In this document: piece by piece, positions 18,042 to 52,067 of the stretch
How positions within the stretch are numbered: the stretch's first letter is position 1
Layout of the letters: each line of letters begins with the position of its first letter
Assembly: GCA_965199825.1 (NCBI GenBank)
Contig: OZ241329.1
Location: 1,152,001 to 1,216,000 of the forward strand
Direction of reading: 5' to 3'
Origin: Bdellovibrionales bacterium
GTDB taxonomy: Bacteria > Bdellovibrionota > Bdellovibrionia > Bdellovibrionales > UBA1609
DNA length: 64,000 nt
Notes under the pieces: model-generated
Database searches by the model: none
Seen by the model: only the letters and a program-made list of their open reading frames with translations
Told to the model about the DNA's origin: nothing
Made by a program: the position numbers and the translations under genes

Positions 18042-18848
18042 TCAATGTCGATGATGGGCACGATGATGACCCGAACACAAAATCGTCAGATTCTCGATTT
18101 CATCTGTACCACCCTGTGATTTTGGATGTTGATGATGGATATCAAGATGTCTTTGCTGCGTGCATCTTTCACCATTTTCATCGATGTGGGTACATTGGCC
18201 GTCATACTTTTGATGGAGCTTACGTTTGATGGTGATTTTCGAAGTGCTTTTGGGCGGGCACGATTTTTTGAGCGGATCCAATTTCTCAAGTAATAGCTGA
18301 GTGGCGTGATCGTGGACATCTTGAATAGAGGCGGCTCGTTTTAGTTTTTGACTTAAAAGATCTTGGGCTCTTTGAATCTCTTTAAATTTTTCTTCGCTCA
18401 CCGCATAGGTGATTTGGATCAGAATTGTTTCGCCCACCTGTTTGTATCGTGCCCGCTCGGGAATTGCTTTTTCGGGATGGGCTTTGGCGATTTGTTTTTC
18501 TAAATTTCTTTTTGTGCCCTTGGCATGGTCGCACCATTCGAGAACATTGTCTGAAGTGATGATACTTGCGATGCGGTTAATTTTAGAAACAGAAAGTTCG
18601 CCCGTTTCCATTTGGGTTTTAAGTTCAGGAACTTCAGTAAATTTCTTTGCGAGCTTATTAAAGATGCTTGCCAGTTCCTCTGACATTTTGAGCTGCTTGG
18701 TTGAATACTCAAAAAGCGAATGACAGCCAAATTTATAATAGCTTCTGTTGCGCCACACTTGCTCTAAAGCATTCAACAATTCCATTTCGGTTTTGCGATG
18801 ATTCTTTGCTGCGATCACTGCGGTTTCGTGGATTTTTTGGTGACTCAT
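18042..18848 (-). CDS. HNH endonuclease-domain protein, copy 1 (helical N-terminal domain + C-terminal HNH)
   Basis: QCT...RCTQQRHLDIHHQHPKSQGGTDEIENLTILCSGHH HNH/Zn motif; FGCHSLFEY N-terminal motif; AGGAG RBS. Confidence 0.85.
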   Translation of the reverse strand: MSHQKIHETAVIAAKNHRKTEMELLNALEQVWRNRSYYKFGCHSLFEYSTKQLKMSEELASIFNKLAKKFTEVPELKTQMETGELSVSKINRIASIITSDNVLEWCDHAKGTKRNLEKQIAKAHPEKAIPERARYKQVGETILIQITYAVSEEKFKEIQRAQDLLSQKLKRAASIQDVHDHATQLLLEKLDPLKKSCPPKSTSKITIKRKLHQKYDGQCTHIDENGERCTQQRHLDIHHQHPKSQGGTDEIENLTILCSGHHRAHHRH

Positions 18849-18873
18849 TAAATATCTCCTATTTACTGAGTTA

Positions 18874-18882
18874 AATATAACA
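18874..18882 (-). promoter_or_regulatory. Extended -10 promoter of HNH copy 1
   Basis: TGTTATATT on minus strand; equivalent TGATATACT precedes copy 2. Confidence 0.5.
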
Positions 18883-19060
18883 TGAGTTTTTTTAAGAGCA
18901 TTTTTGATAGGACTCGACTGTTTGTGGAGATCAAGTTTTTGCTGGAGAGTTTGGCTTAAGGTGCGTTTGTGAAGTGCGTGTGTTTCAAAAAGAATCGGAT
19001 GTTTTCAAAAACAAATCCTTGGGCATTTTAAGACACCTAAATTTGCGTCAATATTTTTTT

Positions 19061-19264
19061 TGGGCGGGCACGATAATTTGTTTACCTCATCCGCGGTAGG
19101 CACGAACACTTATCTACCGCTATGGGCGGGCACGACGAATTATGAATCCATCCTGGGCGGGCACGATACTTTCGCAGCCTCATTGGGCGGGCACGACAAT
19201 CCACAACCCCCACTCGAAGCGGGAACGACAATGCACAACCCCCACTCGAAGCGGGCACGACAAT
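19061..19264 (+). repeat. Interspaced repeat array: 7 x (TGG)GCGGGCACGA core, 30-32 bp period, ~17-21 nt variable intervening sequence
   Basis: CACGA/AACGA cores at 19069, 19101, 19131, 19162, 19192, 19224, 19256. Confidence 0.85.
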
Positions 19265-19372
19265 CTAAAAATCCAACCCAATACTGCAACAACAGCCGGC
19301 TCTGGCGAAGGGGCCCAAATAGTCACTTTCAAAAATCATCTAGATCCTGATTGCTCTGATCGGGCATTCGAC

Positions 19373-20542
19373 TTGCTCATAAGCTTGTTGGTGATTTTAA
19401 TTTTACTTTTACTTCATTTAAAGGCTTTTGCGGGCTGCAACGGTTTGCCGTTGTGCCATTTTACGCTTGCGGTTGTTAATGACGATCAAAAGCCAACACT
19501 GATCACAAGTCAGTATCGCTTTCGTCCGCCCCAAAAAGGCTATCCTACTTTAGTTTATATTCCTGGCGGACCGGGTGAAAAGGCTTCCGATAAAAGTTTT
19601 GATGCGTTTTTTGATTCTCCTCCACAGTTTGGGGTTCTCCTCACCGATCCTCCCTTTATCGACATGCAAAGTAGCGATAAATTTAAAAAACTGATGACCT
19701 CACAGTTTGTGGCAGATGTTGTGTCAAAGGCGATTGAGGATGCAGGAGTTGAATCTAACTATATTTTGTTTGCTGATTCCTATGGAACAGTTCCGGCTAC
19801 GATCTTGGCTTCGCAAAAAAAACCGCGTGCGGTTGTTTTAGAGGGAGTGGTCGGCAAGGCTCGGACCTATGACGATTACCGCAATGGATTTCTCAACCAA
19901 GAAACCGAGATCCTGACGCGACTTAAAAATAAAGTTGTTAAAACTTATAATGCTCGGGTGAATTTATTTTTGGATCGCGGATCTTTAAGTGGCGATCAAG
20001 CGTGGGCGATACTACAAACGGTTTTGATCGATCGACATCATAATGGAAAGATTTGGCTTGAAACATTGGCCGAGCAAAGCACCCAACTTCGAATTCCTAA
20101 TTTTTTAAAAATGCTTAAAGATGTTTTTATGCTGAGTGTGGCAAAACATTTTGGCTCATCCCAGTTAAATCTGAATCAGGTTATCAACTGTCGAGAACTT
20201 TACTATGCCGAAGGTCACACCGATGAAACCTGTGACGGATCACCCAAAACTCTTTTTGATTCCGCTCAATATCAGATTCAATCGCCTGTCATTTATGTGG
20301 TTGGGGAAAATGATCCGATCACTCCTGATAACGGTTTTTATCATTATTCCAATCAAAAGACCGACCAAAAGTGGTTGGTACTTGTGAACGATGCGGGGCA
20401 TGCCCCATTGTCGGTGGAATTAAAAAACTGTGCGGTTGATTTTTGGAATAGTTTTATTGATCAAAATAATCTTGATGGTGCTGCACAAGTTTTAAAAAAC
20501 TGCGGCCGCACTTCTGGCAATAAAAAAATGGCGTCGAAGTAG
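19373..20542 (+). CDS. Secreted alpha/beta hydrolase (proline iminopeptidase-like)
   Basis: YIPGGPG, nucleophile elbow ADSYG, GENDP, AGH; signal peptide; start likely TTG 19373 or GTG 19391 (track ORF extends into the array). Confidence 0.75.
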   Translation: MLISLLVILILLLLHLKAFAGCNGLPLCHFTLAVVNDDQKPTLITSQYRFRPPQKGYPTLVYIPGGPGEKASDKSFDAFFDSPPQFGVLLTDPPFIDMQSSDKFKKLMTSQFVADVVSKAIEDAGVESNYILFADSYGTVPATILASQKKPRAVVLEGVVGKARTYDDYRNGFLNQETEILTRLKNKVVKTYNARVNLFLDRGSLSGDQAWAILQTVLIDRHHNGKIWLETLAEQSTQLRIPNFLKMLKDVFMLSVAKHFGSSQLNLNQVINCRELYYAEGHTDETCDGSPKTLFDSAQYQIQSPVIYVVGENDPITPDNGFYHYSNQKTDQKWLVLVNDAGHAPLSVELKNCAVDFWNSFIDQNNLDGAAQVLKNCGRTSGNKKMASK

Positions 20543-20603
20543 GGGCGCACAACCCGACAATTGTCTTGTTGAGCAAACATCCAAAATCAATGACACTGTT
20601 TGG

Positions 20604-21101
20604 GTGATCATCATTTTATTTATACTCCAAGCCTTTGCCACCGAAGTCTGTTTTTCACCGGATCAACCTTGTGACGAAAAACTGAGCGCCTTGTTGAGCG
20701 AGGCCAAAAAATCAATTTCAATCGCGATATATGATATCAATCTTGAACAGGTGATCCACCAACTGATCAAAGCCAAGCTCAGGGGCGTGAACGTTCGAGT
20801 GGTTGCCGATAAAAGACAAAGCAAGGGATCGCACTCGGCGGTATCCACTTTGGTCAAAGCCAATGTTCCGGTTCGGTTTGGTCGCCAAAGGGGAATCATG
20901 CACGACAAGTTTACAATCGTGGATGATCAAACTCTTCAGACCGGGTCGTTTAATTATACCCACCACGCAGCAACCGCAAATCAGGAAAATCAAATTTATT
21001 TAACCGACCTTGAGGTAATTAAGAAATTTGGTGAGCGATTTGAAAAGATTTGGATGGGTGCTGGCCCTACAATTCCGCGCAGAGTCTCTAGCGAAAATTA
21101 A
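20604..21101 (+). CDS. Secreted phospholipase D-family (Nuc-like) nuclease
   Basis: Single HKD motif HDKFTIVD...TGSFN; ENQ; short signal peptide. Confidence 0.85.
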   Translation: MIIILFILQAFATEVCFSPDQPCDEKLSALLSEAKKSISIAIYDINLEQVIHQLIKAKLRGVNVRVVADKRQSKGSHSAVSTLVKANVPVRFGRQRGIMHDKFTIVDDQTLQTGSFNYTHHAATANQENQIYLTDLEVIKKFGERFEKIWMGAGPTIPRRVSSEN

Positions 21102-21127
21102 AATAATCGGCTAAGACCTTTAACTTC

Positions 21128-22129
21128 ATGACCGAAAAAATGTTGCTCCACCATCTTTATCAAAACCCTTTTGTTCTGGCACCTATGGCCGGAATTACCG
21201 ACTGCTCTTTTCGCTCATTCATGCGCGAGATGGGCTGTGGAATTGTGGTTACCGAGTTGGTCTCGGCCATGGGTTTAAAATACAGTTCTGAAAAAACTCG
21301 GGCGCTGATGGCTTACGAAGAATCACAACGCCCCATTGGCATTCAACTCTTTGGAGAAGATTTAGAGAGTTTTAGTTTTGCTGCTCGCGAAGCCGAAATT
21401 GCGGGTGCCGATTTTGTTGATTTGAATTTTGGTTGTCCCGTTCCCAAGGTTGTTAAAAAGGGAGCGGGTGCTGCAATGCTCAAAGACCTCAAACAACTGG
21501 CTGAAGTCTTAAGAACGGTGAAACAAGCGGTTAACATTCCGGTGACTATAAAAATCAGAACAGGTTGGGATGAGCTCTCTCGTAACGCTCATGAGATCGT
21601 CAAGATTGCTGCGAACGAAGGTATAACTTGGGTGGCCATCCATGGACGCACTCGCGCGCAAGGTTACAGTGGACAAGCGGATTGGGATTATATTCGCTAT
21701 GTGAAATCGGTAAGTCCTATTCCTGTCTTGGGCAATGGCGATATTCACTCAGGCTCTCAGGCGCGCATGCGTTTGGATTCAAGTTTGTGTGACGGGGTTT
21801 TGATTGGTCGAGGATGTTTAAAAAATCCTTGGATCTTTCGAGAGGCCAAAGGCCAAGAGGTGGAAAAAAATTATGAAGATGTTTTGTTGAAATTGATTGA
21901 GCATTTAAAGAAATTTAATTCTGAGCGGATTGTGATGTTACAGATCAAAAAATTCGCCACTTGGTATTCGGCGGGATTTCCAGAATCTTCGGCCTTTCGT
22001 TCGACCGTTTTTAAAATGAAAGAGTCTGACCAATTGATCGAGGCGGTATTTGATTACTACCGCTCTTTGAAAGGCTACTTGCAAAAGGATACAAGCCAAG
22101 AAGCCTTTTTGATGGGTGGCCATGGTTAA
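21128..22129 (+). CDS. dusB: tRNA-dihydrouridine synthase B
   Basis: LAPMAG, DLNFGCP, KIRTGW, HGRTR, NGDI. Confidence 0.9.
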   Translation: MTEKMLLHHLYQNPFVLAPMAGITDCSFRSFMREMGCGIVVTELVSAMGLKYSSEKTRALMAYEESQRPIGIQLFGEDLESFSFAAREAEIAGADFVDLNFGCPVPKVVKKGAGAAMLKDLKQLAEVLRTVKQAVNIPVTIKIRTGWDELSRNAHEIVKIAANEGITWVAIHGRTRAQGYSGQADWDYIRYVKSVSPIPVLGNGDIHSGSQARMRLDSSLCDGVLIGRGCLKNPWIFREAKGQEVEKNYEDVLLKLIEHLKKFNSERIVMLQIKKFATWYSAGFPESSAFRSTVFKMKESDQLIEAVFDYYRSLKGYLQKDTSQEAFLMGGHG

Positions 22130-22130
22130 T

Positions 22131-23447
22131 TTATTTGGATTTAAAAATCTTCCAAGCCTTTAAATTATTGTAGGCCTGGGCCACCTCAAAATCATTGCGT
22201 AGCAATTTTGTTTTATCCGAAAGTGCTTCTTTTTCTTTTACAGAATCAGTACTCCACCAAGTTCCTTTGGCCCGTTTCTTTGTTTTCCCTTCGACCGCTT
22301 TGACTTCGGCATCACCTAAAAGATGGCCTTCCATATCTTGCTCGCGCCGACCTTCATCCGCCTTGAGTGTGGCTTTTTTTAATATCTCGTTATCGATCGG
22401 ATCAAACACGATATCAGGATCGATGCCGAGGGCTTGGATCGATCGACCTTTTGGAGTGTAATAGCGTGCCACTGTCAGTTTTAATCCTGATCCATCGCCG
22501 AGCTTGATTACCGATTGGACCGAGCCTTTACCAAAACTGCGTTGGCCCATAATCACCGCGCGATTGTTATCTTGGAGTGCACCGGCCAAAATTTCTGATG
22601 CACTTGCGGTGTACTCATCGATTAAAACGATAATTGGAAAGTCGGGCATGGTGCCTTGTTTCTTGGCGCGGATGATTTCTTTTTCTTTGGGATCACGCCC
22701 GATGGTGCTGACGATAATTCCCTCGTCTAAAAACATATCGCTGATCTGGACGGCTTGATCGAGTAAACCCCCTGGGTTTTTTCGCACATCTAGAATAAGT
22801 CCATTTATCTTTTGATGTTTTTTGGTGTGATCTTTAAAAATTTTGTCGAGCTCACCGGCTGATGTTTCAATAAAACTTGTGAGTTTGACATAGGCATAAC
22901 CATCATCAAGATCGGTGTACTTGGCAGATTTCAATTTGACAGTGGCGCGCTCAAGAGTAAATGCTTTTGGTTTATCAAAACCTTCGCGGTAAATTCCGAG
23001 CATCACTTGGCCTTTTTTGTTTTCGCGCATTTTGAGTGCGGCGTCGGCAAGGCTTAATCCTTTAGTGGACTCATTGTTGATTTCTACAATTTTGTCTCCG
23101 GGCTGGATGCCGGCCTTAAATGCGGGAGTGTCTTCAATAGGTGAGATGACGGTGAGGACTCCATCTTGGATGGTGATCTCAACCCCAAAACCACCAAACT
23201 CGCCCGAGGTTTCGGATTTAAATTCACTGAACTTTTCTGATTCCATAAAGCTCGAGTGGGGATCTAATTCGCGGAGCATTCCTTTGATCCCGCCATAGAT
23301 TAATTTTTTGGTGTCGACCTCTTCAACGTAATATTGCTGAATCAGATTCAACACTTTGGCAAAAAGCTGAAGGTCTTGGTAGCGTTCGGCAGCGAAGGCT
23401 GTGCTAAAGCAAACAGCGCCAATCATCAGCCAATATTTCATTTTCAT
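22131..23447 (-). CDS. ctpA: C-terminal processing peptidase (S41A)
   Basis: LDPHS, PDZ domain, NPGGLL, ASASEI, GKGSVQ; start re-estimated at ATG 23447. Confidence 0.9.
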   Translation of the reverse strand: MKMKYWLMIGAVCFSTAFAAERYQDLQLFAKVLNLIQQYYVEEVDTKKLIYGGIKGMLRELDPHSSFMESEKFSEFKSETSGEFGGFGVEITIQDGVLTVISPIEDTPAFKAGIQPGDKIVEINNESTKGLSLADAALKMRENKKGQVMLGIYREGFDKPKAFTLERATVKLKSAKYTDLDDGYAYVKLTSFIETSAGELDKIFKDHTKKHQKINGLILDVRKNPGGLLDQAVQISDMFLDEGIIVSTIGRDPKEKEIIRAKKQGTMPDFPIIVLIDEYTASASEILAGALQDNNRAVIMGQRSFGKGSVQSVIKLGDGSGLKLTVARYYTPKGRSIQALGIDPDIVFDPIDNEILKKATLKADEGRREQDMEGHLLGDAEVKAVEGKTKKRAKGTWWSTDSVKEKEALSDKTKLLRNDFEVAQAYNNLKAWKIFKSK

Positions 23448-23457
23448 TTTAGCTCCC

Positions 23458-24525
23458 TCAAAAGTTGTTGGCCTGATTCTCCGGTTTGTTTTTGATCCAA
23501 GGAAGCGGATCAATTGCGTCAGAAAAATGCCGAATTTCGAAATAGACTCCATTGATTTTATGAAAGGGTGAAAAGCTGGTAAACCCCAAAACTTCACCTT
23601 CGTTCACATCATCGTTCAATTTTAACCGTAGATTACTTAAAGTCCCGTAGACCGTGTGATAATGATCGCCATGATCGACGATAACGACAAGACCATTTCC
23701 GGGGAGGGGTCCGCTAAAAACCACTTTGCCGCGATGAACCGAGCGTACTGCAGCACCTTGCGAGCTCTCTAAAAATAAACCCTTATGAGACAACTTGTAA
23801 TGAAGCTCTGGGTTTTCGATAAAGCCATATTCCTGTCGGACTGGACCTTCTGTTGGCGTGACTAAAAGTCCTTTGCGCTCAAAAAATGCTGTTTCATAAA
23901 CCACGTCTGAATCTTTGCGCAGATCTTTAATCTGCATGAGCGCCTGCTGCTGATGGGTCTGAAGTTTTTCGAGCAATGCCGATTTTGATTTTTGCTCAAA
24001 CTCGAGCAAACCTTCTTGCCCCTTTAAATCGATCTGAATTTTGGCAAGCCGTTCGACTTTGGTTTTCAACATCTCGCGATGTTCACGAAGAGTTGTTAAG
24101 TTGAGCTGAAAGTCTTTGATCAATTCGAGATCGCGCTCGGAAACCAATTTTAAAAATTTAGTATGACGAAAGAGATCATTCGCATTGAATGACGAAAATA
24201 AAAGTCTCAAGGTGGATTGAAAATTCATGCGGTACATCGCACTCAATCTGCGCGACAGATGAAGACGTTGCGAATCCATTTTGCTTTCAAGAGTTCCAAT
24301 CATTTTTGCAAGACCGCGAGCATCGTTTTTTGCCAGCAGCATCTTGTCGGTCAGAGCTCCCCGTTTTTGGCTCATCGATTTCATTTTTTTATTGATGGAA
24401 TAAAGAGTACCTAAGACTTCGCGATTTTTTATTTCGTCTTGCGACAGCCGAGTTTTTATTTCCTCAAAGGACGGCTTGACACTGACGGTTGCGGCAACGG
24501 CCACACTCAGAAAAAGTCGGATCAA
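23458..24525 (-). CDS. envC: EnvC-like coiled-coil + M23 murein hydrolase activator
   Basis: Long coiled coil, HKGLF, IVDHG, YFEIR; follows ftsX; start likely TTG 24525. Confidence 0.8.
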   Translation of the reverse strand: MIRLFLSVAVAATVSVKPSFEEIKTRLSQDEIKNREVLGTLYSINKKMKSMSQKRGALTDKMLLAKNDARGLAKMIGTLESKMDSQRLHLSRRLSAMYRMNFQSTLRLLFSSFNANDLFRHTKFLKLVSERDLELIKDFQLNLTTLREHREMLKTKVERLAKIQIDLKGQEGLLEFEQKSKSALLEKLQTHQQQALMQIKDLRKDSDVVYETAFFERKGLLVTPTEGPVRQEYGFIENPELHYKLSHKGLFLESSQGAAVRSVHRGKVVFSGPLPGNGLVVIVDHGDHYHTVYGTLSNLRLKLNDDVNEGEVLGFTSFSPFHKINGVYFEIRHFSDAIDPLPWIKNKPENQANNF

Positions 24526-25415
24526 GATGTCGACCTTTCTGCAGCAGCCCATCCTGAGGCTTGGGTCTGGACGCAGAAGTAAGCCGAGAGCCAACCAAAA
24601 AATCCACCAAGACCTATAAATCCCATGCTTTGAAAAAGACTTAAAAATTGAAGATTCAATTTCCAAAGAGCAATGCTGTCTTCAAAAAATTGGAGTTGCC
24701 AATGGTAAAACCCATAACAAAAAAGAATGGCAAAGAGAGATGCAGCACTTCCGATAAATGCACCTTCAGCCAAAAAAGGAGCTTTAATCATTCGTGAGGT
24801 TGCACCGACCAATTCTAAAATTTCGATTTCGTCGCGCCGTTGTGAAATTGCCGAACGGATAGAGAAGCTCACAATAAATAAACTCGCGACCAATAACAGC
24901 GCCATCAAAAAATTAGAGGCACGAGCAAAGGTTTTGATAAAAGTAAGATAATTTTCGATCCAGCCTTGACCATAGGAGACTTCGTCGACTCCGTCCATTT
25001 GGGTCAGTGCCGAAGTTAGGGATTGAACACTCTGGTTGGGTTTAAGCTTAGTCTCAAAACTTGCGGGCAATGGATTTCCAAAATCGGCATCCGACAAAAG
25101 CCCTGCTGAATAAAGGCCCATTTCAATCTTAAATTTTTTAGCCGCCTCTGATTTTTCGACAAAATTGATGCTCTCAAACTGATTTGAGCTTTCTAATTTT
25201 TGACGAATCTTTTTTAAAGCTTCGGGCGAGATCATGTCGCGAAGATAAACCGTGTATTGCACCGACTCGCCCCAAACCTCAAAAACATGCTGCAAGTTTT
25301 TTTGCACACAAAAAAAACTGGCAATCACAAAGAATGTGGCGGTGAGTACAAAAAGGGTTGTGGTTTGTGTTGTGGGATGATGACGAAAACTGCGTTTGAT
25401 GTTTTGCAAAATCAT
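24522..25415 (-). CDS. ftsX: Cell division permease FtsX
   Basis: NPLPAS, RRDEIEILELVGAT...PFLAEG. Confidence 0.92.
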   Translation of the reverse strand: MILQNIKRSFRHHPTTQTTTLFVLTATFFVIASFFCVQKNLQHVFEVWGESVQYTVYLRDMISPEALKKIRQKLESSNQFESINFVEKSEAAKKFKIEMGLYSAGLLSDADFGNPLPASFETKLKPNQSVQSLTSALTQMDGVDEVSYGQGWIENYLTFIKTFARASNFLMALLLVASLFIVSFSIRSAISQRRDEIEILELVGATSRMIKAPFLAEGAFIGSAASLFAILFCYGFYHWQLQFFEDSIALWKLNLQFLSLFQSMGFIGLGGFFGWLSAYFCVQTQASGWAAAERSTS

Positions 25416-26077
25416 CGTCGTTGACCTGCTTCGATGTTGCCACTGCGTATCTCAACCACGCGGCGGTTATAGGATTTTACGAGAGAATCATCGTGAGTTG
25501 CGATAAACACGGTTGTGCCTTGAGCATTGACCCGATCAAACAAGCCCATGATTTCTCGTGAAAGATCTCGGTCTAAATTTCCGGTGGGCTCATCCGCGAT
25601 CAGCACGCCCGGCTGATGAATCAGAGCTCGAGCAATGGCCACACGCTGTTGCTCTCCTCCACTCAAATGCTCAGGGTAGACATCATGTTTAAATGAAAGT
25701 GCAACTTGATCTAAAATTTCATGCACTCTTTTTTGGATCATCTGGGGGCGGTCGCCCCGAATTACAAGTGGAAGCGCCACATTTTCAAAAACGGTGCGTG
25801 TTTTTAATAAACGAAAATCTTGATAGACCACACCGATGCGGCGACGAAGATAAGGTATTTTATTTTTTGATATTTGGTTGAGATCAAAACCTGCAACGTT
25901 CACTTGACCCGAAGTTGCCTTATCGTATCCAGAAAGAAGGCGAAACAGAGTGGTTTTTCCAGCCCCGCTGGGACCGGTAAGAAAAACGAATTCACCTTTA
26001 CCTATTTCGAGATTTATATCTGAGAGAGCCTGCACAGGGCCGGGATAGCTTTTGTAGGTGTGAGAAAAAGAGATCAT
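25412..26077 (-). CDS. ftsE: Cell division ATPase FtsE
   Basis: GPSGAGKT, LRRRIGVVYQDFRLL, LSGGEQQR, ADEPTGNLD. Confidence 0.95.
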   Translation of the reverse strand: MISFSHTYKSYPGPVQALSDINLEIGKGEFVFLTGPSGAGKTTLFRLLSGYDKATSGQVNVAGFDLNQISKNKIPYLRRRIGVVYQDFRLLKTRTVFENVALPLVIRGDRPQMIQKRVHEILDQVALSFKHDVYPEHLSGGEQQRVAIARALIHQPGVLIADEPTGNLDRDLSREIMGLFDRVNAQGTTVFIATHDDSLVKSYNRRVVEIRSGNIEAGQRR

Positions 26078-26097
26078 GCTCTTATTCTAACGAAAGT

Positions 26098-26352
26098 TTA
26101 AAATAATTGTCCCGAAACCAAAAGATCTAGAATTTTGTCGTGTTGGAATCTCATCGCCATACGAATGGCCGATGTCCCCGCCGCAGGACCACCTGGCAAG
26201 ACTTGGGTATAGGGTGTCTTAATACTTTTAACAACCGCACCATTCTTGAAGACACGACTGACTAAATAAGGATTGTCGAATCCCCAGTCTTCGGTTTGAA
26301 CGTGGTATGCGTAACCCGTCACCATCACATCAGAATTGTAGCCCTTTTCCAA
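26098..26352 (-). CDS. Small hypothetical protein
   Basis: GGAGG RBS, TTG start; YHVQTEDWG motif. Confidence 0.65.
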   Translation of the reverse strand: MEKGYNSDVMVTGYAYHVQTEDWGFDNPYLVSRVFKNGAVVKSIKTPYTQVLPGGPAAGTSAIRMAMRFQHDKILDLLVSGQLF

Positions 26353-26416
26353 TCAGCCCTCCGTTTAAAAAACTATAGGGCTTGGTCCAGACGAAATTAA
26401 GTATGAAAGCGGCGCG

Positions 26417-27070: not shown

Positions 27071-27103
27071 ACATCCCTATTTAGCAGAATATATGCCAAC
27101 CTT

Positions 27104-29660: not shown

Positions 29661-29661
29661 A

Positions 29662-33089: not shown

Positions 33090-33105
33090 TTCGTGGTTAG
33101 CCTTT

Positions 33106-36269: not shown

Positions 36270-36281
36270 ACGGAGCTTCAG

Positions 36282-38257: not shown

Positions 38258-38340
38258 TTTAAAAACCCCCATCCTTAGTGTGAGAGGGACTTTCAAAGGA
38301 TTAAAGCCAAAAAAGTGCGTCACGACTAAAGGCTGGATAT

Positions 38341-39916: not shown

Positions 39917-39962
39917 ATAAATACTTTTACACAAGCCTTTAAGCTTGTATATCTGATGCTCT

Positions 39963-42520: not shown

Positions 42521-42521
42521 T

Positions 42522-43451: not shown

Positions 43452-43486
43452 ACTTGAATTGAGCTCTGAAAAGGCTCAAAGGTCAA

Positions 43487-44764
43487 TCAGCTGATTGACG
43501 CTTTTTCGATTAGGAAATTTGCCACTTTTTCTTCAGTCAGCTGAAAATTGAGTCGCGATGCCATCTCTTTTTTCTGATAAAATTCGGCAATGCGAGCGCG
43601 CTCGATCCCTGTGCTTTCGGCGTGCTGGGTAATCCGAGCTTCAAATTCTTCAGAGGTTGCACGAAGATTTTTTTGGTCTGCGAGAGCATCCACCAAAAAG
43701 GTGCACTGGACCATAAACTTAGCTGAGTCGGTAAAATCATTGGACCATTTGGTTTTGTAATCTTCAAATTCGGCCTCAGAGTATTGGCCTTCTTGCTTCA
43801 TTCGATCTTGCACATCTTTTTGGAGAGTCTCGATTTGTTGTTGTAACAACGAAGCAGGAACCGCAACTGGATTGGCATCGACAAATGCGCGCATCACTTT
43901 GTTTTTAACATCCTCTTGAATCCGGCGTTCTTCACCCGCAACAAGATCGGCTTTAATTTCTGCACGCAGCTCGTCCATATTGGCTTTGCCATTTTTCTTT
44001 GCGAACTCTTCATTAATTTCGGGGAAACGTTTGGTTTTGAGTTGTTTCAATTTCATCTGAAATTGAGCGGGCTTTCCGGCCACATCGGCTGCGTGATAAT
44101 CATCTGGAAATTTGACCGAAATGTCGCGTGAGTCGCCAACCTTCATGCCGATAATTCCATCTTCAAATCCAGGAATTGATCGCCCGCTGCCGAGCTCCAG
44201 TGGATAATCCTGGGCTTCGCCCTGTTCCATCGGCGCACCATCAATAAATCCTTTGAAGTCGACAATGACCACATCGCCAGTTTGGGCGCCGCGGTCTTCA
44301 AATACGGTGACCTCCTCGGCTTGTCGCTCTTGCAAATTTTTAAGCAAGCTCTCAATACTCTCATTGGTGATTTCGTATTTTTCTTTTTCGACTTTGAGGC
44401 CTTCAACTTTTTTGATTTGAATCTCGGGTCGAATCTCGAGTTCAGCGGTGTAACTAAAATCACTTTCTTCGCTAAAAGGAGCAAGATCCACTTTTGGAAA
44501 TCCAATAGGCTCAAGTTGGTGCTCTTCAAGCGCCTTTTGATAAGAATCAGAAACCAAATCTTGAATAACATCTTGCTCAACTCTGTCGCGGTAAAGAGAG
44601 CGGATGGTTGTCATCGGCGCTTTACCTGGGCGAAAGCCCTTTATCGTGGCATTCCGTTGAATTCCCCGATAGACTTTGTCGAATGCAGTACGTACATCTT
44701 CGGCGGGAACTTGAATCGAGAGTTTACGTGATAAACCGTCGAGCGTATCGAGTGTGGATTTCAT
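43487..44764 (-). CDS. tig: Trigger factor
   Basis: GFRPGKAP signature; FKBP-like domain. Confidence 0.95.
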   Translation of the reverse strand: MKSTLDTLDGLSRKLSIQVPAEDVRTAFDKVYRGIQRNATIKGFRPGKAPMTTIRSLYRDRVEQDVIQDLVSDSYQKALEEHQLEPIGFPKVDLAPFSEESDFSYTAELEIRPEIQIKKVEGLKVEKEKYEITNESIESLLKNLQERQAEEVTVFEDRGAQTGDVVIVDFKGFIDGAPMEQGEAQDYPLELGSGRSIPGFEDGIIGMKVGDSRDISVKFPDDYHAADVAGKPAQFQMKLKQLKTKRFPEINEEFAKKNGKANMDELRAEIKADLVAGEERRIQEDVKNKVMRAFVDANPVAVPASLLQQQIETLQKDVQDRMKQEGQYSEAEFEDYKTKWSNDFTDSAKFMVQCTFLVDALADQKNLRATSEEFEARITQHAESTGIERARIAEFYQKKEMASRLNFQLTEEKVANFLIEKASIS

Positions 44765-44809
44765 AAAAGTCTACATATTCAATGCGTGTTTCAAAGGCAA
44801 GGAAATGAT

Positions 44810-45628
44810 GTGAAGCTTCTCTTCGTCACAGGTAAGGGCGGCGTCGGCAAATCCACTCTCGCAGCCGCTCTCGCACTCAAAAACGCCAAGAGCGGAAACA
44901 AGACCCTGCTGGTAGAGCTTGGGGATCAATCCTATTTTGAAAATTGGCTTTCGATCCCCATTGGGCATGATCCGACATCGCACATTCATCCCAACCTTTT
45001 TTTTAGTCGTTGGGAGGCCTCAGCCTGCCTCAAGGAATACCTGACCCATTATCTCAAGGTCGAGACCTTGGTGAATCTCTTTTTCCAAAACAAAGTGATG
45101 AAAACTTTGCTGCAAGCCGCACCGGCACTCAAAGAAATTTCGCTACTCGGAAAAATCACCAGCGGCATTCGCAAAATTGGACCCCCGTTAGTGTATGACT
45201 GCGTGGTGATCGACTGTTTTTCGACCGGTCATTTTAAGGCCTTGATACAAGCTCCAAAAGGATTGAGCGAAGCTGTTAAATTTGGCCCCATGGGCGAGCA
45301 ATGCCGATCGATTCTTAATGTGATAAAAGATAAAACCATTTGCTCCTATCATCTGGTTTGTTTGCCCGAAGAGTTGCCGGTGATTGAAACAAAGGAACTT
45401 GAGCAATTTTTAAAATCCGAATTGGGTGTTGAGCCCTTGCAAATATTAAATCGGATGTGGCCAATCCCACCTGTTCTTATTGAAGGCACTCCTTATTTTG
45501 AATTTCTAAAAGCCCGCCAACAATCACAAAAAGACAGTGCTAAAGAATTACCTCGAGCACTCAAAGCTCCCCTGGTTTTTGAAAGTTCACCACATGAAAT
45601 CCTAAATCAACTGAGCGAGAAAATATGA
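44810..45628 (+). CDS. ArsA/Get3-family ATPase (1)
   Basis: VTGKGGVGKST, DCFSTGH, PEELPV. Confidence 0.85.
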   Translation: MKLLFVTGKGGVGKSTLAAALALKNAKSGNKTLLVELGDQSYFENWLSIPIGHDPTSHIHPNLFFSRWEASACLKEYLTHYLKVETLVNLFFQNKVMKTLLQAAPALKEISLLGKITSGIRKIGPPLVYDCVVIDCFSTGHFKALIQAPKGLSEAVKFGPMGEQCRSILNVIKDKTICSYHLVCLPEELPVIETKELEQFLKSELGVEPLQILNRMWPIPPVLIEGTPYFEFLKARQQSQKDSAKELPRALKAPLVFESSPHEILNQLSEKI

Positions 45629-46650
45629 AGATCATCATTTGTGCGGGAACAGGCGGAGTTGGAAAAACCACCGTGTCGGCAAGTCTTGGACTTTGTTTTG
45701 CTCATCAAGGCAAAAAAGTTTTGGTCCTCACGCTGGATCCAGCACGGCGTTTGATTTCGGCCTTGGGGCTTGATTCGTCAGACGAAGAAATTCGTGTGGA
45801 CCTCAAAACAAAAGGCGAGCTGTGGGCATCGATGATCGACCCGGCAAAAATTTTTGATCGCTTTATTCACCGAGTTTCGACTTCGGAAACTCAGGCTCAA
45901 AAACTGTTAAAAAATCCACTTTATTTTCAGCTGAGCCGTTCGCTCAATGGATCGCAGGAGTTCACTAGCCTTGAGCGACTTTTGGAGGCCTGGGAAAGCA
46001 AAAAATATAATTTGATCATTCTCGACACTCCACCCTCACAGCATGCGGTGGATTTTTTAAAAGCGCCTGAACAAATTTTTTCGCTCTTTCAAGATTCGAT
46101 TACGAAATGGTTTATCCAAAAAAATGGTGGCCTTCTCAACTCAATTTTTCATCGTGGTACTCAAGCGGTATTGAGTGCCTTAGAGCGGATCACTGGATCG
46201 CAATTTGTTGGCGAGCTTTCCGACTTTTTTGCGAGCATGAGTGATATGCAGCAAGTTGTGGCCAGTCGAAGTATTCGTGTGCATCAACTTTTAACCCAAG
46301 CCGAAACATCATTTTTACTTGTAACCGGATATGACGAAGCCAAACTGCGCGAGGCCCAAATGTTTGCCAAAGAGATTCGTCGTGGTGGCTACAAGCTCGG
46401 GGGTGTGGTTATCAATCGCTCATTTCCTGAAGAGCAAAAGAGCAGTGGCTTGCCAAAAGAAAATAAAGAGTTTTACCAAAATGTAAAAAACTATTTTGCT
46501 CACAAAATTAAGCTCTGCGATGACTTCGCACGCGAACTTAAATTACCGGTGACCCGATTGCCTGATTTTACTAAATCAATTCAAGGTCTCGATGGCATCA
46601 AGATGATCGCTGAAGAGCTGAAGAGTTCAAATATTATGGAGAAACTATGA
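45625..46650 (+). CDS. ArsA/Get3-family ATPase (2)
   Basis: GTGGVGKTT, DPARRL, DTPPS. Confidence 0.88.
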   Translation: MKIIICAGTGGVGKTTVSASLGLCFAHQGKKVLVLTLDPARRLISALGLDSSDEEIRVDLKTKGELWASMIDPAKIFDRFIHRVSTSETQAQKLLKNPLYFQLSRSLNGSQEFTSLERLLEAWESKKYNLIILDTPPSQHAVDFLKAPEQIFSLFQDSITKWFIQKNGGLLNSIFHRGTQAVLSALERITGSQFVGELSDFFASMSDMQQVVASRSIRVHQLLTQAETSFLLVTGYDEAKLREAQMFAKEIRRGGYKLGGVVINRSFPEEQKSSGLPKENKEFYQNVKNYFAHKIKLCDDFARELKLPVTRLPDFTKSIQGLDGIKMIAEELKSSNIMEKL

Positions 46651-47699
46651 GAATTTATTTATGTGCAGTTTTAATCTTAAGCTTGGGCTGTGCCTCATCG
46701 AAAAAAAGAGAATCGACTGCGACCCCCGCGCCAGATTCAAGAGTGATGGTGGAATTTGAAAAGGGGCTAAAATATCTTGAAGAAGAAAAATACGAGATGG
46801 CGGCTCGCACTCTTGATCAGCTGCTCGTCGATAAACCGGCCTCTGAATTTGACTTGGTCGTTTCATTTAATGCCGCCGCTGCACGCGAAGGGATGAAAGA
46901 TTGCAAAGGTGCAGCTGAGCGCTATCGCCGAATTTTTAATGTGGCAAAAACAAAGTTTGAACCGATCGCCAATCAAGCCCTTTATCGCCTGAGTTATGCT
47001 TACGAGTGTTTAGGTGCCGACGCCAAGGTGATCAGCAGCCTGCTTGATCTTAGAAAAAAAACCAATGGCATTGCCGAAGATATTAGTCTTGCAGAAATTC
47101 CTGCGCGCCTTGCCGCAGCCTACGCCAGAGTCGAAAATCGCGACCTCTCACTGCAGTACTATGATCTCGCAAATCAAGGACTCAATCAATTGCGAGTCAA
47201 TTTTCGCTCACGTGCAAAATATGATGATGTGATGGCGCGCACTCTTTTTTATATGGGACGTCTGACCCTTCCTGATGAAAGAGCAAAAGTAAAACCAAAA
47301 GCCTATCTTGAAAACGTAAGGGCGTTGCAACCTTATCTTGTTCAAGCGGTAATTATGGATGTTCCAACTTGGTCGCAAAAGTCTTATCAACAATTGAGCA
47401 ATGCCTACGCTCGCCTCTGGGATTACGTTGAGCAAGTCAAGAGCAGCGAAACCAAAGATGTTTTGCTCAAAGAAGTAGAAGATCGCAATGCACGACTTGC
47501 AATTGCACGTGAGGCGATGATTTCATTGGGCACCTTGCGCAAAATGGTAACCACCGTGCCGATAAAACCGCAAAGTGTTCCGGGCGAAATGCTGCAGTTT
47601 ATCGATGGACAAGATAAGCGCTTTCAAAGCTTATTAAGTGCAAATGCGGTAACCACATTGCCCTCGCTCGAGTCGCAAAAAAGACATCAGGTGAAGTGA
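46647..47699 (+). CDS. TPR-like lipoprotein
   Basis: LSLGC lipobox; helical repeats. Confidence 0.6.
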   Translation: MRIYLCAVLILSLGCASSKKRESTATPAPDSRVMVEFEKGLKYLEEEKYEMAARTLDQLLVDKPASEFDLVVSFNAAAAREGMKDCKGAAERYRRIFNVAKTKFEPIANQALYRLSYAYECLGADAKVISSLLDLRKKTNGIAEDISLAEIPARLAAAYARVENRDLSLQYYDLANQGLNQLRVNFRSRAKYDDVMARTLFYMGRLTLPDERAKVKPKAYLENVRALQPYLVQAVIMDVPTWSQKSYQQLSNAYARLWDYVEQVKSSETKDVLLKEVEDRNARLAIAREAMISLGTLRKMVTTVPIKPQSVPGEMLQFIDGQDKRFQSLLSANAVTTLPSLESQKRHQVK

Positions 47700-48928
47700 T
47701 GGACCAATCGCAAATTCATCATAAAATTGTTCATCGTTTGGATGTGATTACAAATTGGTTTCAGCAGCAACAAAAAGGTTTAAAATTTCCGTTTTACTCC
47801 AGCTTTGATTTGCGAGATTCGGGTTTTAAAGTTGTTCCTGTTGATGCAAATATTTTTCCTGCAGGATTTAACAATATTTGTCGGGCCGATCGTGATTCGA
47901 GTGTGGAGTTGGTCAGAGAATACTTGGCTCGCCATTACCCAGAAAAATCACAAAAAATTGTGCTGTTAACTGAGGAGCACACCAACAATCCTTATTACTG
48001 GGACAATGTGAGCACCATAAAATTTCTGCTTGAAAAAGCAGGGCGCACGGTGCGACTTGCGATTCCGCGCGAACTTTCGACACCTCTAAGTTTAAAGAGT
48101 GCATCGGGACAAATGGTCGATGTTTTTTCGGCCCGTCGCGAGGGCGAATCGATCACGGTTGACGGCATGACTCCAGATTTAATTATTAGTAACAACGATT
48201 TTTCAGAAAGTTATTCCGAATGGGCCGAAAATTTAAAAACGCCCATCAACCCACCCCATGATTTGGGCTGGCATCGAAGACGCAAAGATCATTTTTTTAA
48301 AATATACAACCAATTGGCCATCGAGTTTGCTCGATTGATTGAGGTTGATCCCTTTTATTTTCATGTCGAAACCACAGTCTTCGAAAACTTTGGTGAGGAG
48401 CGCAGGCAAGAACTTGCACAAGATGTGGATCTTTTTTTAACCAATTTAAAAGATCAATATGCTGCACAAAATATTTCAAATGAGCCATTTGCCTTTATAA
48501 AAAACAATGCGGGCACCTATGGGCTCGGAGTCACTCAAGTGCATTCCTCAAAAGAAGTTTTAGAATGGAATTACAAAGCTCGCAAAAAAATGAAAGCGGC
48601 CAAAGGTGGACGCGGAGTCGATGAGGTCATCATTCAAGAGGGCGTCCCTACGATTGTCACCGCCTCTGGTGCAACCGCAGAGCCTGCGATTTATATGTTG
48701 GGATGTCAGCTTGCCGGAGGATTTTTGCGAACTCACAATCAAAAAAATAACGAAGAGAGTTTAAACAGTCCGGGAGCGATTTATCAAAAGCTTTGCATCT
48801 CGGATCTCAATGTCAGCGTGGAGGGTCATCCAATGGAAAATGTTTATGGGTGGGTGGCGCGCTTGAGTTGCCTCAGCATTGCGCGCGAAGCTAAGGAGTA
48901 TGGCGTTCAATTTCCGGGGTATAACTAA
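47696..48928 (+). CDS. gshA: Glutamate-cysteine ligase, ATP-grasp-like GshA type
   Basis: FYSSFDLRDSGFKVVPVDANIFPAGFNN, EEHTNNPYY, GTYGLG, IQEGV, LNSPG. Confidence 0.85.
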   Translation: MMDQSQIHHKIVHRLDVITNWFQQQQKGLKFPFYSSFDLRDSGFKVVPVDANIFPAGFNNICRADRDSSVELVREYLARHYPEKSQKIVLLTEEHTNNPYYWDNVSTIKFLLEKAGRTVRLAIPRELSTPLSLKSASGQMVDVFSARREGESITVDGMTPDLIISNNDFSESYSEWAENLKTPINPPHDLGWHRRRKDHFFKIYNQLAIEFARLIEVDPFYFHVETTVFENFGEERRQELAQDVDLFLTNLKDQYAAQNISNEPFAFIKNNAGTYGLGVTQVHSSKEVLEWNYKARKKMKAAKGGRGVDEVIIQEGVPTIVTASGATAEPAIYMLGCQLAGGFLRTHNQKNNEESLNSPGAIYQKLCISDLNVSVEGHPMENVYGWVARLSCLSIAREAKEYGVQFPGYN

Positions 48929-48931
48929 TTT

Positions 48932-49567
48932 ATGAAAGCTGCGGTCTTTTCAATTTGTTTATGTTTTGGAATTTTGTGTTCGTTTTTATCCTGGAATAGC
49001 ATGGTCTACATCTATGTTGGTGATTCGCGAACTCCGGCTGCAGTCCCGCAGCATCTGGATTTATCCAATCTCCAAGGCACTTCGCTCACTCTTGCTTCGC
49101 GCGATCGATTATTTAGTCATGCTCGTTTGATAAAAGAAAACGAAGTCACTGGCATTGAGCTCGGAAATTTTTTGGTCAAATCCGACACGGGCGAAAAAAA
49201 CTTTGCTTGTCACACCTATCAGCGCATTCAACTCAAGTATCAAGCGGTGGGTGAAGCTGTGAGCGGCGAAATCCCTGAGATGTCGATTGAAGGTCCGTGT
49301 TTGATGTCTGACAACGTCAACACGCTTAAGCCCTTATGGATTCCGCAATCTCGATTGATTGCAACTCATCCACATGATTACGCCATCGATTATGAAGAGC
49401 ATGGTGTGCAAATGAATTTTCAATTTAAAAATATGGGAAATTCGTGGCCGGAGCAGTGGGTATTGTTAGGGGCTCGGTTATATGATCCCGATCAACAGGG
49501 ATCAGAATTAGCAATCAATGCACAGGGTGTGCGGCTTCCCCTCAACTGGTCAGCGAATCGAAAGTAA
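48932..49567 (+). CDS. Hypothetical membrane-anchored protein
   Basis: N-terminal TM; co-oriented with gshA. Confidence 0.55.
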   Translation: MKAAVFSICLCFGILCSFLSWNSMVYIYVGDSRTPAAVPQHLDLSNLQGTSLTLASRDRLFSHARLIKENEVTGIELGNFLVKSDTGEKNFACHTYQRIQLKYQAVGEAVSGEIPEMSIEGPCLMSDNVNTLKPLWIPQSRLIATHPHDYAIDYEEHGVQMNFQFKNMGNSWPEQWVLLGARLYDPDQQGSELAINAQGVRLPLNWSANRK

Positions 49568-50317
49568 ATTTAAAAAAGTCGACATTGATCGATTGCTGCT
49601 GTTTGCAAGATTCGCAATCAACGCATGATCCACACCGCGCTCTTTTAAAAGATACCAATAAAATCCACCTTCAATAAATTGCTCAAAGGTCAAAGCCGAG
49701 AGTTGAATCCCATCATCGGTACTCGAGGCAGCGGCGGCATAGCTCAGCGCCATCAACACACCCGATTTCCAATTTTTGATATTCTTTTCGGGGATCATAT
49801 TAAAAACGAGGGTGATCAAGGGTTCAATTAGCATGATCTGCAGATGAGTGCTGTAAGGCTGTGCTTTGATATCCAGCATTCGCATATTGAGCTCGGCCGG
49901 GCTTAAACCCTGTCCAAATAAAAGATCAATTGCAGTCTCACCAATCAAGACCATTTGGGCTTGCATAACTGTTTTGGTGTACGAAGGTTCATCCTTATTC
50001 AGATCAGTAGTTGTGACCAAATATTTTTTGATGTGATCAAAGATGCGCGCGCCCACAAGATTCACCGCCACACCAGGAATGTTGGCGGGATAAGTCGAAA
50101 GGGCCTTTGTGAGAGCGTTGCGTGTTTGTGGATCCACCGAAAGCGTGCCGTTCGAAAAATTAACTTTTCCATTGTCAGTGATTGCCCCCATCCCAAGCGC
50201 AAATACGCCAGACCCAGCAAGCAAACTTAAGCACATCGAACGCCGCGAAATTGTTTTAGGCGCTTCAGCCGCAAAGGATTGGGTGGATAGCAATAAGATG
50301 AGAGCGAACTTAAACAT
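49550..50317 (-). CDS. Exported/membrane protein with degenerate CPBP (CAAX/Abi)-like C-terminus
   Basis: Probable ATG 50317 (MFKFALILLLSTQSFA signal); C-terminal GGFYWYLLKERGVDHALIANLAN; the longer track ORF reads through the repeat. Confidence 0.5.
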   Translation of the reverse strand: MFKFALILLLSTQSFAAEAPKTISRRSMCLSLLAGSGVFALGMGAITDNGKVNFSNGTLSVDPQTRNALTKALSTYPANIPGVAVNLVGARIFDHIKKYLVTTTDLNKDEPSYTKTVMQAQMVLIGETAIDLLFGQGLSPAELNMRMLDIKAQPYSTHLQIMLIEPLITLVFNMIPEKNIKNWKSGVLMALSYAAAASSTDDGIQLSALTFEQFIEGGFYWYLLKERGVDHALIANLANSSNRSMSTFLNLLSIR

Positions 50318-50448
50318 ATCCTGGGTGTAGCGATCAGCATGCCGAGTGGGCTGCCGTAAGGCTGCCTCTGGCCTGGTATTGCTGATAAAATTTGCTTTGG
50401 TGTGCCGCAAATTGGCTTTTTTGGGTTGTTGCTGAGAGACGGCCGGTT

Positions 50449-50929
50449 TGTCGTGCCCGCTCAAGGTGTCGTGCCCGCTCATGTTGTCGTGCCCGCTCAT
50501 GTTGTCGTGCCCGCTCATGTTGTCGTGCCCGCTCAAAGTGTCGTGCCCGCTCAAAGTGTCGTGCCCACTCAAAGTGTCGTGCCCGCTCAAGGTGTCGTGC
50601 CCACTCAAAGTGTCGTGCCCGCTCAAGGTGTCGTGCCCGCTCAAAGTGTCGTGCCCACTCAAAGTGTCGTGCCCGCTCAAAGTGTCGTGCCCGCTCAAAG
50701 TGTCGTGCCCGCTCAAAGTGTCGTGCCCACTCAAAGTGTCGTGCCCGCTCAAAGTGTCGTGCCCGCTCAAAGTGTCGTGCCCGCTCAAAGTGTCGTGCCC
50801 GCTCAAAGTGTCGTGCCCGCTCAAAGTGTCGTGCCCGCTCAAAGTGTCGTGCCCGCTCAAAGTGTCGTGCCCGCTCAAAGTGTCGTGCCCGCTCAAAGTG
50901 TCGTGCCCGCTCAAAGTGTCGTACCCGCT
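50449..50929 (-). repeat. 18-bp tandem repeat, 26 full units + 1 degenerate; unit GAGCGGGCACGACACTTT on minus strand
   Basis: TGTCGTGCCCGCTCAAAG every 18 bp from 50449 to 50917. Confidence 0.97.
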
Positions 50930-51216
50930 GACTCCAGATAAAATCCTGAACCAAAACTAAACACCTCCGGAGTTTGCAAAAATACTCAAGAATCACTTTC
51001 AGTAAGACGTGCGAAGTGCGTGTCACCACAAATTCTTTAAATTAATATTGACGCGTTTTTGCAGCTTCGGGAGCAGGACTTATTTGGTCACTATTGAATC
51101 AGGGGTCTTCAAAGCTCAATCTGCGGATATAACCTGGTCCAAATCAAAATAACCCACCGTAATTTTCAAAATAAAAATCACACGTGCTCGTTCAAAAAAT
51201 CAAAATAAATAACCCA

Positions 51217-51225
51217 TGATATACT
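51217..51225 (+). promoter_or_regulatory. Extended -10 promoter of HNH copy 2
   Basis: TGATATACT then AAACAGGAGA RBS, mirrored upstream of copy 1. Confidence 0.5.
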
Positions 51226-51248
51226 TCTTCTTTAAACAGGAGAAGTTT

Positions 51249-52067
51249 ATGGATCATTCTAAAATTCATTTCCAAGCAGTAACGGCTGCGGCCAACCACC
51301 GCAAAACAGAAATGGATTTACTTAACGCTTTAGAAATCGTATGGCGAAATAAAACGTATTATGAGTTTGGGTGCCAATCTTTGTTTGAATATTCAACCCA
51401 ACAACTTAAATTATCTGATGAGCTCGCGAGCATCTTTAATAAACTAGCAAAAAAATTTATTGAAGTGCCTGAACTTAAAACTCACATTGCATCAGGTGAA
51501 ATTTCAATTTCAAAGGGCAATCGAGTTTGCAGTGTGATCACCCCAGAAAATGCCGAAGAATGGCTGGCGAAAGCCAAAGGTACAAAACGAAATCTTGAAA
51601 AGGAAATCGCGAAAGCACAACCTGAAAAGGCAATCCCTGAGCGGGCACGATATCGTAAAGCAGGCGACACCGTTAGAATTCAAATTTCTTACTCTGTCAC
51701 CGAAGACGAATTTAAAGAGCTCGAAAGAGCAAAAGATTTAATGAGCCAAAAATTAGGTCGAACGGCCACAACCAACGATGTTTGTGTGCGAGCGGTAAAA
51801 ACACTCTTACAAAAAATAGATCCGCTCGAAAAGTCGTGCCTGGTTCAAACTGCGGGCACGATCAACTTAACCGTAAAACTAAAACGGAAAGTTCATCACA
51901 ATCACAATAGCCAGTGCACTTACCGAGATGAAAGTGGCAAGCGCTGCACTCAGCGGCGTCACCTTGATATCCATCACATCACCCCGACATCACTAGGTGG
52001 TACCAACGACGAAAACAATCTCACAATTTTTTGTTCGGGACATCATCGTGCCCACCACCGCCATTAG
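51249..52067 (+). CDS. HNH endonuclease-domain protein, copy 2 (paralog of 18042-18848)
   Basis: RCTQRRHLDIHHITPTSLGGTNDENNLTIFCSGHHRAHHRH; colinear with copy 1; AGGAG RBS before ATG 51249. Confidence 0.85.
   Translation: MDHSKIHFQAVTAAANHRKTEMDLLNALEIVWRNKTYYEFGCQSLFEYSTQQLKLSDELASIFNKLAKKFIEVPELKTHIASGEISISKGNRVCSVITPENAEEWLAKAKGTKRNLEKEIAKAQPEKAIPERARYRKAGDTVRIQISYSVTEDEFKELERAKDLMSQKLGRTATTNDVCVRAVKTLLQKIDPLEKSCLVQTAGTINLTVKLKRKVHHNHNSQCTYRDESGKRCTQRRHLDIHHITPTSLGGTNDENNLTIFCSGHHRAHHRH

Follow-up and report, generated by a model that had tools for sequence, protein, structure and literature searches.

In a window of 64,000 nucleotides of the Bdellovibrionales bacterium assembly GCA_965199825.1 (contig OZ241329.1, positions 1,152,001 to 1,216,000; "the window" hereafter), we describe two copies of a gene for a protein of about 270 residues that ends in an HNH nuclease domain, each copy being preceded by an array of the 10-mer GCGGGCACGA, below simply the motif. 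Our analysis revealed that the motif stands both upstream of the genes of this family and in their coding sequences, and that relatives carry different motifs at the same places, so that the protein likely recognises the motif. Judged from the sequences and the predicted fold, it is very probable that the family protein binds this site, this claim being taken alone. The best explanation of the whole, including amplification and spread, is a selfish, site-specific nickase element that represses itself and around which copies of its DNA site accumulate by local duplication, a model that we hold with moderate confidence. The anatomy described below is strong and controlled, and the mechanism, in every one of its biochemical steps, is what we infer.

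The host is a predatory bacterium of the Bdellovibrionota with a genome of 2.84 Mb, including one contig of 2.78 Mb that carries the window (the host genome is G000 below, other G-numbers are genomes of the order, and L-numbers are homolog loci). In agreement with a preliminary description made from the sequence alone, the two genes are paralogous open reading frames (ORFs) with an HNH domain and the common end CSGHHRAHHRH; their products P0001 and P0002, of 268 and 272 amino acids (aa), are 65% identical, and both match the Pfam HNH family above its cut-off. The mirror geometry noted there holds as far as the opposite orientation goes, yet the pair are merely two of 27 dispersed near-complete paralogs, to which one HNH-only pseudogene is added. 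Among the 27, 24 are open, one has an internal stop, one has an internal deletion and one is without the HNH domain. The HNH active site and zinc ligands are invariant in 78 homologs and intact in 26 of the 27 paralogs, which are under purifying selection. As described before, neighbouring genes differ between the two window loci; in fact neighbours vary from copy to copy throughout the genome, and no partner gene was seen beside the family genes. Family genes are found in 96 of 280 genomes of the order, patchily at orthologous loci. Named relatives and Atlas clusters assign the family to Bdellovibrionota. It is a large, unassigned family of 11,919 clusters (50% identity, E<=1e-10), and the phage and plasmid collections searched gave no match.

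The structure predicted for P0002 consists of a ParB/KorB-type DNA-binding domain (DBD), a ribbon-helix-helix (RHH) and an HNH nuclease, with structure-search matches to 4h9d and 5h0o for the HNH part. The family thus resembles ParB-parS and Noc-NBS (KorB, Spo0J) in the predicted DBD fold and in 16-bp palindromes that vary with the protein, and the consensus parS and NBS are palindromes similar in form to the linker sites of relatives described below, in the part of the source drawn on here (PMC7383237). It differs from ParB, Noc and KorB in that the CTPase domain is missing, no ParA partner is seen, an HNH domain is fused, and the sites lie in or beside the gene itself. No ParBc Pfam match was found in the window proteins or the 78 homologs, and there is no room for an N-terminal CTPase because the DBD starts at about residue 14, with elements of the model from residue 3. 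These points bear on the explanation that the protein is a domesticated factor organising or diversifying the chromosome in the manner of Noc/NBS or parS, with origin-proximal marks and with arrays as host-selected landing pads. The ParB-type fold, the parS/NBS-like palindromes, the purifying selection and the location of 20 of the 27 genes in the origin-proximal half of the chromosome (p=0.02; dnaA at 972 kb) are in its favour, whereas the lack of a CTPase domain ahead of the DBD, the patchy occurrence in the order and the use of differing sites by paralogs of a single genome (G203) make it improbable.

Counted at no more than one mismatch, GCGGGCACGA has 42 matches in the window against 2.74 expected, and none of 100 shuffles has as many. 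The genome-wide count proposed in the preliminary description also gives an enrichment, with 300 exact copies against 4-17 expected from Markov models. Of these, 118 are upstream of family genes, 39 in genes and one downstream; another 118 form gene-less clusters and 24 are single, so that family genes, their immediate surroundings and the clusters account for 276 of the 300. None of the 27 paralogs is without an upstream copy, and the 7-letter core of the upstream copies takes one orientation relative to the gene at 157:1, i.e. they are direct repeats. The view of gene plus array as one dispersed unit is supported by 27 of 27 paralogs, and arrays without a gene occur as well. Both window arrays lie where they had been described, with the nearest copy 216 bp from the start codon of one gene and 321 bp from that of the other, and the final two units of array 1 are a 32-bp duplication. 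Ten gene-less arrays inspected are all intergenic tandems with units of 16-20 bp. Array units come in 114 distinct forms with lengths of 16-130 bp, the smallest being 16 bp. Tandem pairs of the exact motif occur in the host genome only among 301 genomes of the order searched, and full palindromes of the motif number zero in the host genome.

That the full motif is found nowhere else in the window, as first supposed, proved wrong, for four exact copies and one with a single mismatch lie inside the two genes (Table 1). In the paralogs the motif has fixed intragenic places, namely the Glu-Arg-Ala-Arg codons at nucleotide (nt) 392, the linker between RHH and HNH, and the His-Arg-Ala-His codons at the 3' end. 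The linker copy is reverse at nt 585 in 14 paralogs and forward at nt 603 in 10; it is present both ways only in P0002 and missing in two paralogs. When 82 conserved degenerate codon columns are ranked by synonymous conservation, the top five are all motif codons (0.91-1.0; median 0.5), while the mean identity at fourfold sites of the paralogs is 38%. For example at the 3'-end site, the Arg codon is the same in 26 of 26 paralogs and the Ala codon in 25 of 26. To judge from these codons, the motif inside the gene is selected at the DNA level. Moreover, the HNH-only pseudogene starts at the linker site, immediately 3' of array-like sequence, as would be the outcome of a deletion between same-oriented sites. 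A protein deposited in ENA (P0015) is a mosaic of two host paralogs with a switch at about residues 100-155, near the Glu-Arg-Ala-Arg site, and is either a recombinant or an assembly chimera.

In relatives, 130 homolog loci were gathered, 93 of them usable because the linker could be located and 500 bp or more of upstream sequence was available. Their linkers hold palindromes of 16-20 bp without a loop, in sequences other than the host motif: palindromes with at least 7 of 9 pairs are found in 58 of the 93 linkers, where coding controls from the N-terminal part give 11 and shuffles give 10-22, and those with at least 8 pairs in 25 linkers against none in the N-terminal control. The reading-frame phase of the dyad is identical in 26 of 30 well-defined sites, and the dyad mostly lies 40-50 codons 5' of the catalytic His, the same as in the host genome. 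The host motif would correspond to one half of the relatives' palindrome, with the other half degenerate. A match to the linker site (at least 14/16) is found upstream at the same locus in 15 of the 58 loci, from 7 genomes with 8 of the 15 in G203, and is absent in the other 43, against 4 of 138 for same-genome paralogs with another site and 7 of 580 for other genomes; a 12-mer shared between linker and upstream region occurs in 19 of 93 loci against 1.8 and 4. The distance between sites, computed over 23 distinct ones, follows that between DBDs (r 0.54; 0.43 with HNH distance removed) more closely than that between RHH (0.31) or HNH domains (0.37; partial 0.07); as clades confound it, this covariation with the DBD is no more than suggestive. 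Neither of the outcomes that the preliminary description had named as refuting its idea was seen. However, in most relatives it is another site that is present, in one or a few copies; long exact-motif arrays belong to one of the 301 genomes searched, and long arrays are missing in most relatives holding many family copies. Duplications bounded by sites are also met in relatives: in G089, units of 107-123 bp follow the gene, and in G265 the linkers contain three or four sites. Altogether the first of two options in the preliminary description, DNA sites recognised by the protein, gains indirect support from the predicted ParB-type fold, the intragenic conservation at the DNA level and the locus-matched palindromes.

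Some further repeats accompany the homologs. Microsatellites with 6-8-bp units are found upstream of or beside many of them, often at contig ends (L004 and L017 in G009, L083-type loci, G270, G221, G089 and G137), which suggests general repeat instability next to family genes. The G203 paralogs (L118-L126) have in common an additional block of about 100 bp, containing a hairpin, that precedes the site as a left extension specific to this lineage.

Between the sites and the gene lies a leader of fixed length, about 200 bp overall. Of the 27 paralogs, 25 have a TTGAC box bordered by A/T tracts, with the TG of an extended -10-like box following at 168-171 bp; the stretch between the two boxes is nearly indel-free with a sequence little conserved. 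In relatives the box pair is found at 165-177 bp in 76 of 125 loci and 25 of 46 genomes, while nine other distance windows give 0-3; 17 of 1,418 control upstream regions have it, of which 16 belong to family genes, and a matrix scan of the genome finds it at 25 paralogs and three weak places only. In a normal sigma-70 promoter the distance from -35 to -10 is about 20 bp, and the boxes here therefore stand about 148 bp, or 14 helical turns, too far apart. A canonical -10 after the TTGAC box was not found; the far box may be a genuine -35 that looping brings into reach, or else another factor may act there. Two divergent paralogs (G000:C1:798436-799110 and 804218-805042) lack the 168-bp pair, their leader being short and of another kind; upstream of them is a separate repeat of 60-70 bp, which is also clustered at 982-985 kb.

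In the model of a selfish nickase element, the ParB-type domain would be the reader of a DNA site of 16-18 bp and the HNH domain would nick DNA nearby. The RHH would form a dimer, whose two DBDs would bind the site in the way that ParB engages parS. Occupied sites upstream and within the coding sequence would repress the gene's own promoter, probably via looping, and the nuclease would thereby be kept scarce. Occasional nicks beside bound sites would be repaired by local tandem duplication of 16-130 bp and also by gene conversion between copies, slippage would then lengthen perfect tandems, and rare ectopic copying of leader and gene would spread the unit.

The sites, lying close in front of the promoter boxes and also within the coding sequence, would suit as well an alternative in which they are operators and decoys only, the protein being a toxic self-repressing nuclease held on its DNA sites as on a "DNA antitoxin". 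Arrays would then grow by ordinary slippage and be kept for soaking up the protein from 27 genes, and loss of chromosomal sites, for example under phage attack, would free the nuclease. The gene-less arrays, which contain 118 of 300 copies and proved intergenic in all 10 cases inspected, agree with it, as do the minimal unit of 16 bp, equal to one predicted footprint, the invariant HNH residues and the purifying selection on the copies. However, slippage alone poorly explains site-bounded duplications of more than 100 bp and repeated linker sites, long arrays are missing in most relatives with many copies, PADLOC matches of the family protein are confined to the HNH stretch, and no partner gene is seen beside genes whose neighbours differ; we consider this alternative possible though doubtful.

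As to the spread assumed by the nickase model, close paralogs are homologous between the upstream motif nearest the gene and roughly the stop codon, one pair has a 521-bp identical tract in common, and neither terminal repeats nor target duplications were seen at the family copies. In genus g22, the flanks of one G192 copy are adjacent to each other in G100, G119 and G203, and no family gene was seen at this locus in other species in the insert parts examined. The empty junctions of G119 and G203 are without a site, at what is a single informative locus, and in G253, where the insert is a different one, a solo family-type site lies about 380 bp inside it. Because the G192 insert also holds two other genes and its junction is variable, the locus shows gain or loss and not the mechanism. 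A second locus compared for filled and empty alleles gave no information.

A parallel is offered by the 17 Y1/RAYT-like HUH genes of the host genome, 14 of which have their own 13-bp upstream direct repeat with irregular spacers instead of REP hairpins; 38 of 47 matches to this 13-bp motif are near Y1 genes, all in one orientation. Two unrelated nucleases with the same anatomy fit a picture in which each amplifies its own site, and leave room for a shared host process. It might even be that the motifs are written or copied by a host process or by the co-resident Y1 enzymes and that the HNH protein is no reader, as would agree with the oriented repeats of the 14 Y1 genes, with one gene-less array directly upstream of a Y1 gene and with a second motif that occurs at both families. 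We give this little credence, as the HNH motif is beside only one of the 17 Y1 genes and the two families keep distinct motifs; moreover the selection on the motif in codons of the HNH gene and the locus-matched sites tie it to that gene, and the host motif, with no full palindrome, is unable to form a REP-type hairpin. The second motif, asymmetric and palindrome-like, has 16 of 52 pattern matches within 300 bp of the first motif, where 2.7% of the genome lies that near, and is also seen near G000:C1 246440, 512617, 565261, 1133691, 1575874, 1599282 and others.

Among known systems, RAYT/TnpA-REP (REPtrons, REPINs) is alike in that a nuclease gene, standing alone, has copies of a cognate short sequence at its flanks, and this sequence is also spread in the genome, away from the gene, as are the gene-less copies and the solo site of G253 here. 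In RAYT subclass 2.4 REPs lie inside the gene, according to the part of the account considered (10.1101/279083). RAYTs are, however, HUH/Y1 enzymes whose substrates are single-strand hairpins that bear a tetranucleotide foot, whereas the present family has HNH and a predicted double-strand reader of ParB type; REPs are 20-40-bp hairpins in inverted pairs, whereas here we find direct repeats, no hairpin in the host motif and 27 gene copies. Membership is rejected with no HUH motif or catalytic tyrosine (Y1_Tnp, PF01797, has no match in P0001 or P0002 nor among the families listed for the 78 homologs) and no inverted hairpin pairs. By analogy, the element may work like RAYT/REP with an unrelated chemistry.

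The second option of the preliminary description, a guide or antitoxin RNA array, is hardly credible. It holds that the arrays or the 200-bp leader are transcribed into RNAs like those of type III toxin-antitoxin (TA), TIGR or OMEGA systems, to which the family is alike in its HNH domain (OMEGA IscB/HEARO) and in the fixed-length non-coding region or repeats by the gene (TIGR-Tas, type III TA). A leader length fixed as in an omega-RNA locus and weak IscB profile scores of 33.5 and 28.8 bits (cut-off 175), for the HNH stretch only, could be cited for it. Against it, the leader shows no RNA structure, with folding z-scores averaging -0.28 and +0.09, a best helix no better than column-shuffled nulls and 0 RNAalifold pairs on the sense strand; unit lengths are irregular, from 16 to more than 100 bp; 6 of 65 spacers match elsewhere, 4 of them in other arrays; no consensus promoter into either array was found; no Rfam family was found except neighbouring 6S RNA and tRNA genes; and RuvC, bridge helix and Nop fold are not seen, three other domains filling all 268-272 aa. 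A Cas1 search found none, in line with the lack of cas genes noted at first. Membership in OMEGA IscB/HEARO is rejected with the IscB cut-off missed, no RuvC or bridge helix and no structured upstream omega-RNA, and membership in CRISPR, TIGR or type III TA arrays with no constant-length units, no Cas1 and no Rfam match to the arrays.

A homing enzyme cuts alleles that lack its gene and leaves its own locus uncut. Free-standing HNH homing or nicking endonucleases (I-HmuI type; HNH endonucleases, HNHEs, of phages gamma, Gme and GVE2) are alike in the small zinc-binding HNH and separate DNA reader, and unlike in that the family gene keeps several intact sites and is matched in neither phage nor plasmid collections. 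As for 13E12/REP13E12 (DUF222, PF02720, plus HNH), 13E12 proteins end in an HNH domain, and likewise these are dispersed multicopy HNH-type genes with function unassigned. DUF222 itself has no match in P0001 or P0002; it is found weakly (E 0.002) in 2 of 78 homologs and on 12-14% of members in Atlas clusters neighbouring P0002. By these profile matches 13E12/DUF222 would be the nearest named protein kin, a weak one and distant kin at most. In the parts of the sources drawn on, phage HNHEs have been shown to nick strand-specifically (PMC3592412), the mycobacterial 13E12 loci are hotspots of gene conversion and inversion for which no function is defined (PMC13061034, PMC13157036) and are bound by LexA (PMC3381160), and the same parts of these three 13E12 sources mention neither a cognate site nor a split leader. 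Altogether the feature is not a member of any system tested.

The features of the window are collected in Table 1. Besides them, the neighbour ORFs 19142-20542 (+) and 49550-50914 (-) run open through the arrays, and their true starts are probably beyond these. Elsewhere in the genome, a third 10-bp word is found at the edge of four arrays (G000:C1:1538562, 1576486, 2055392 and 2565505; 4 of 15 genome copies), the array of one paralog abuts the 6S RNA gene, and two paralogs end beside tRNA genes (L029:145-317, L021:285-367). A reverse transcriptase lies in a 1,291-aa frame (G000:C2:1384-1863) on a 12-kb side contig, which is possibly not part of the host chromosome.

Table 1. Coordinates of family genes, motif copies, promoter-like boxes and other features in the window
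Feature	Position	Strand	Remarks
Gene copy 1 (P0001), 268 aa	18042..18848	-	predicted ParB-type DBD, RHH, HNH; fold inferred from paralog P0002
Intragenic copy, 3' end, His-Arg-Ala-His codons, copy 1	18054..18063	+	2 mismatches to 10-mer
Intragenic copy, RHH-HNH linker, Ser-Cys-Pro codons, copy 1	18254..18263	+	exact
Intragenic copy, Glu-Arg-Ala-Arg codons, copy 1	18447..18456	-	exact
Extended -10-like box (TGnTAnnnT), copy 1	18874..18882	-	function inferred from consensus
-35-like box (TTGACG), copy 1	19046..19051	-	169 bp ahead of TG of -10 box
Upstream array 1	19061..19264	+	seven copies (five exact, two degenerate), irregular spacings 30-32 and 62
Upstream array 2	50449..50929	-	26.7 head-to-tail 18-bp units, one motif each
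Second motif, asymmetric, palindrome-like	50961..50972	+	recurs beside arrays and some Y1 genes
-35-like box (TTGACG), copy 2	51048..51053	+	169 bp ahead of TG of -10 box
Extended -10-like box, copy 2	51217..51225	+	
Gene copy 2 (P0002), 272 aa	51249..52067	+	predicted ParB/KorB-like DBD 14-125, RHH 144-196, HNH 202-272
Intragenic copy, Glu-Arg-Ala-Arg codons, copy 2	51641..51650	+	exact
Linker site, copy 2	51834..51861	.	degenerate reverse copy, 8 bp, exact forward copy (at 51852): interrupted inverted repeat
Intragenic copy, 3' end, His-Arg-Ala-His codons, copy 2	52046..52055	-	one mismatch
Y1/RAYT-like HUH gene	63203-63631	+	among three of 17 without upstream repeat

A literature search, mostly of titles and the openings of abstracts, gave no account of these sites or of the leader. 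A bolder reading, which we regard as unlikely, is that of a new class of selfish elements: thousands of ParB-reader/HNH nickases, each with a 16-18-bp target in its own gene, would breed minisatellites of that target and be expressed only when about 148 bp are looped or wrapped out to join the split -35 and -10, a bacterial parallel to motif-driven minisatellite hotspots. What has been an "HNH hypothetical protein" becomes directly testable, because a candidate target can be read from each member's own gene. If binding holds, nature would offer in this family a collection of small proteins (about 270 aa) that pair a reader with a nuclease and have long, varied sites, as well as a large natural experiment on shifts in ParB-type specificity. 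If nicking drives the arrays, it would provide a mechanism by which sequence-specific minisatellites are born in bacteria, and could point to a cause of the recombination hotspots, so far unexplained, of the distantly related 13E12 loci. Moreover, should the -35/-10 pair be functional, a promoter whose boxes are set about 148 bp too far apart throughout an order would be of unusual design.

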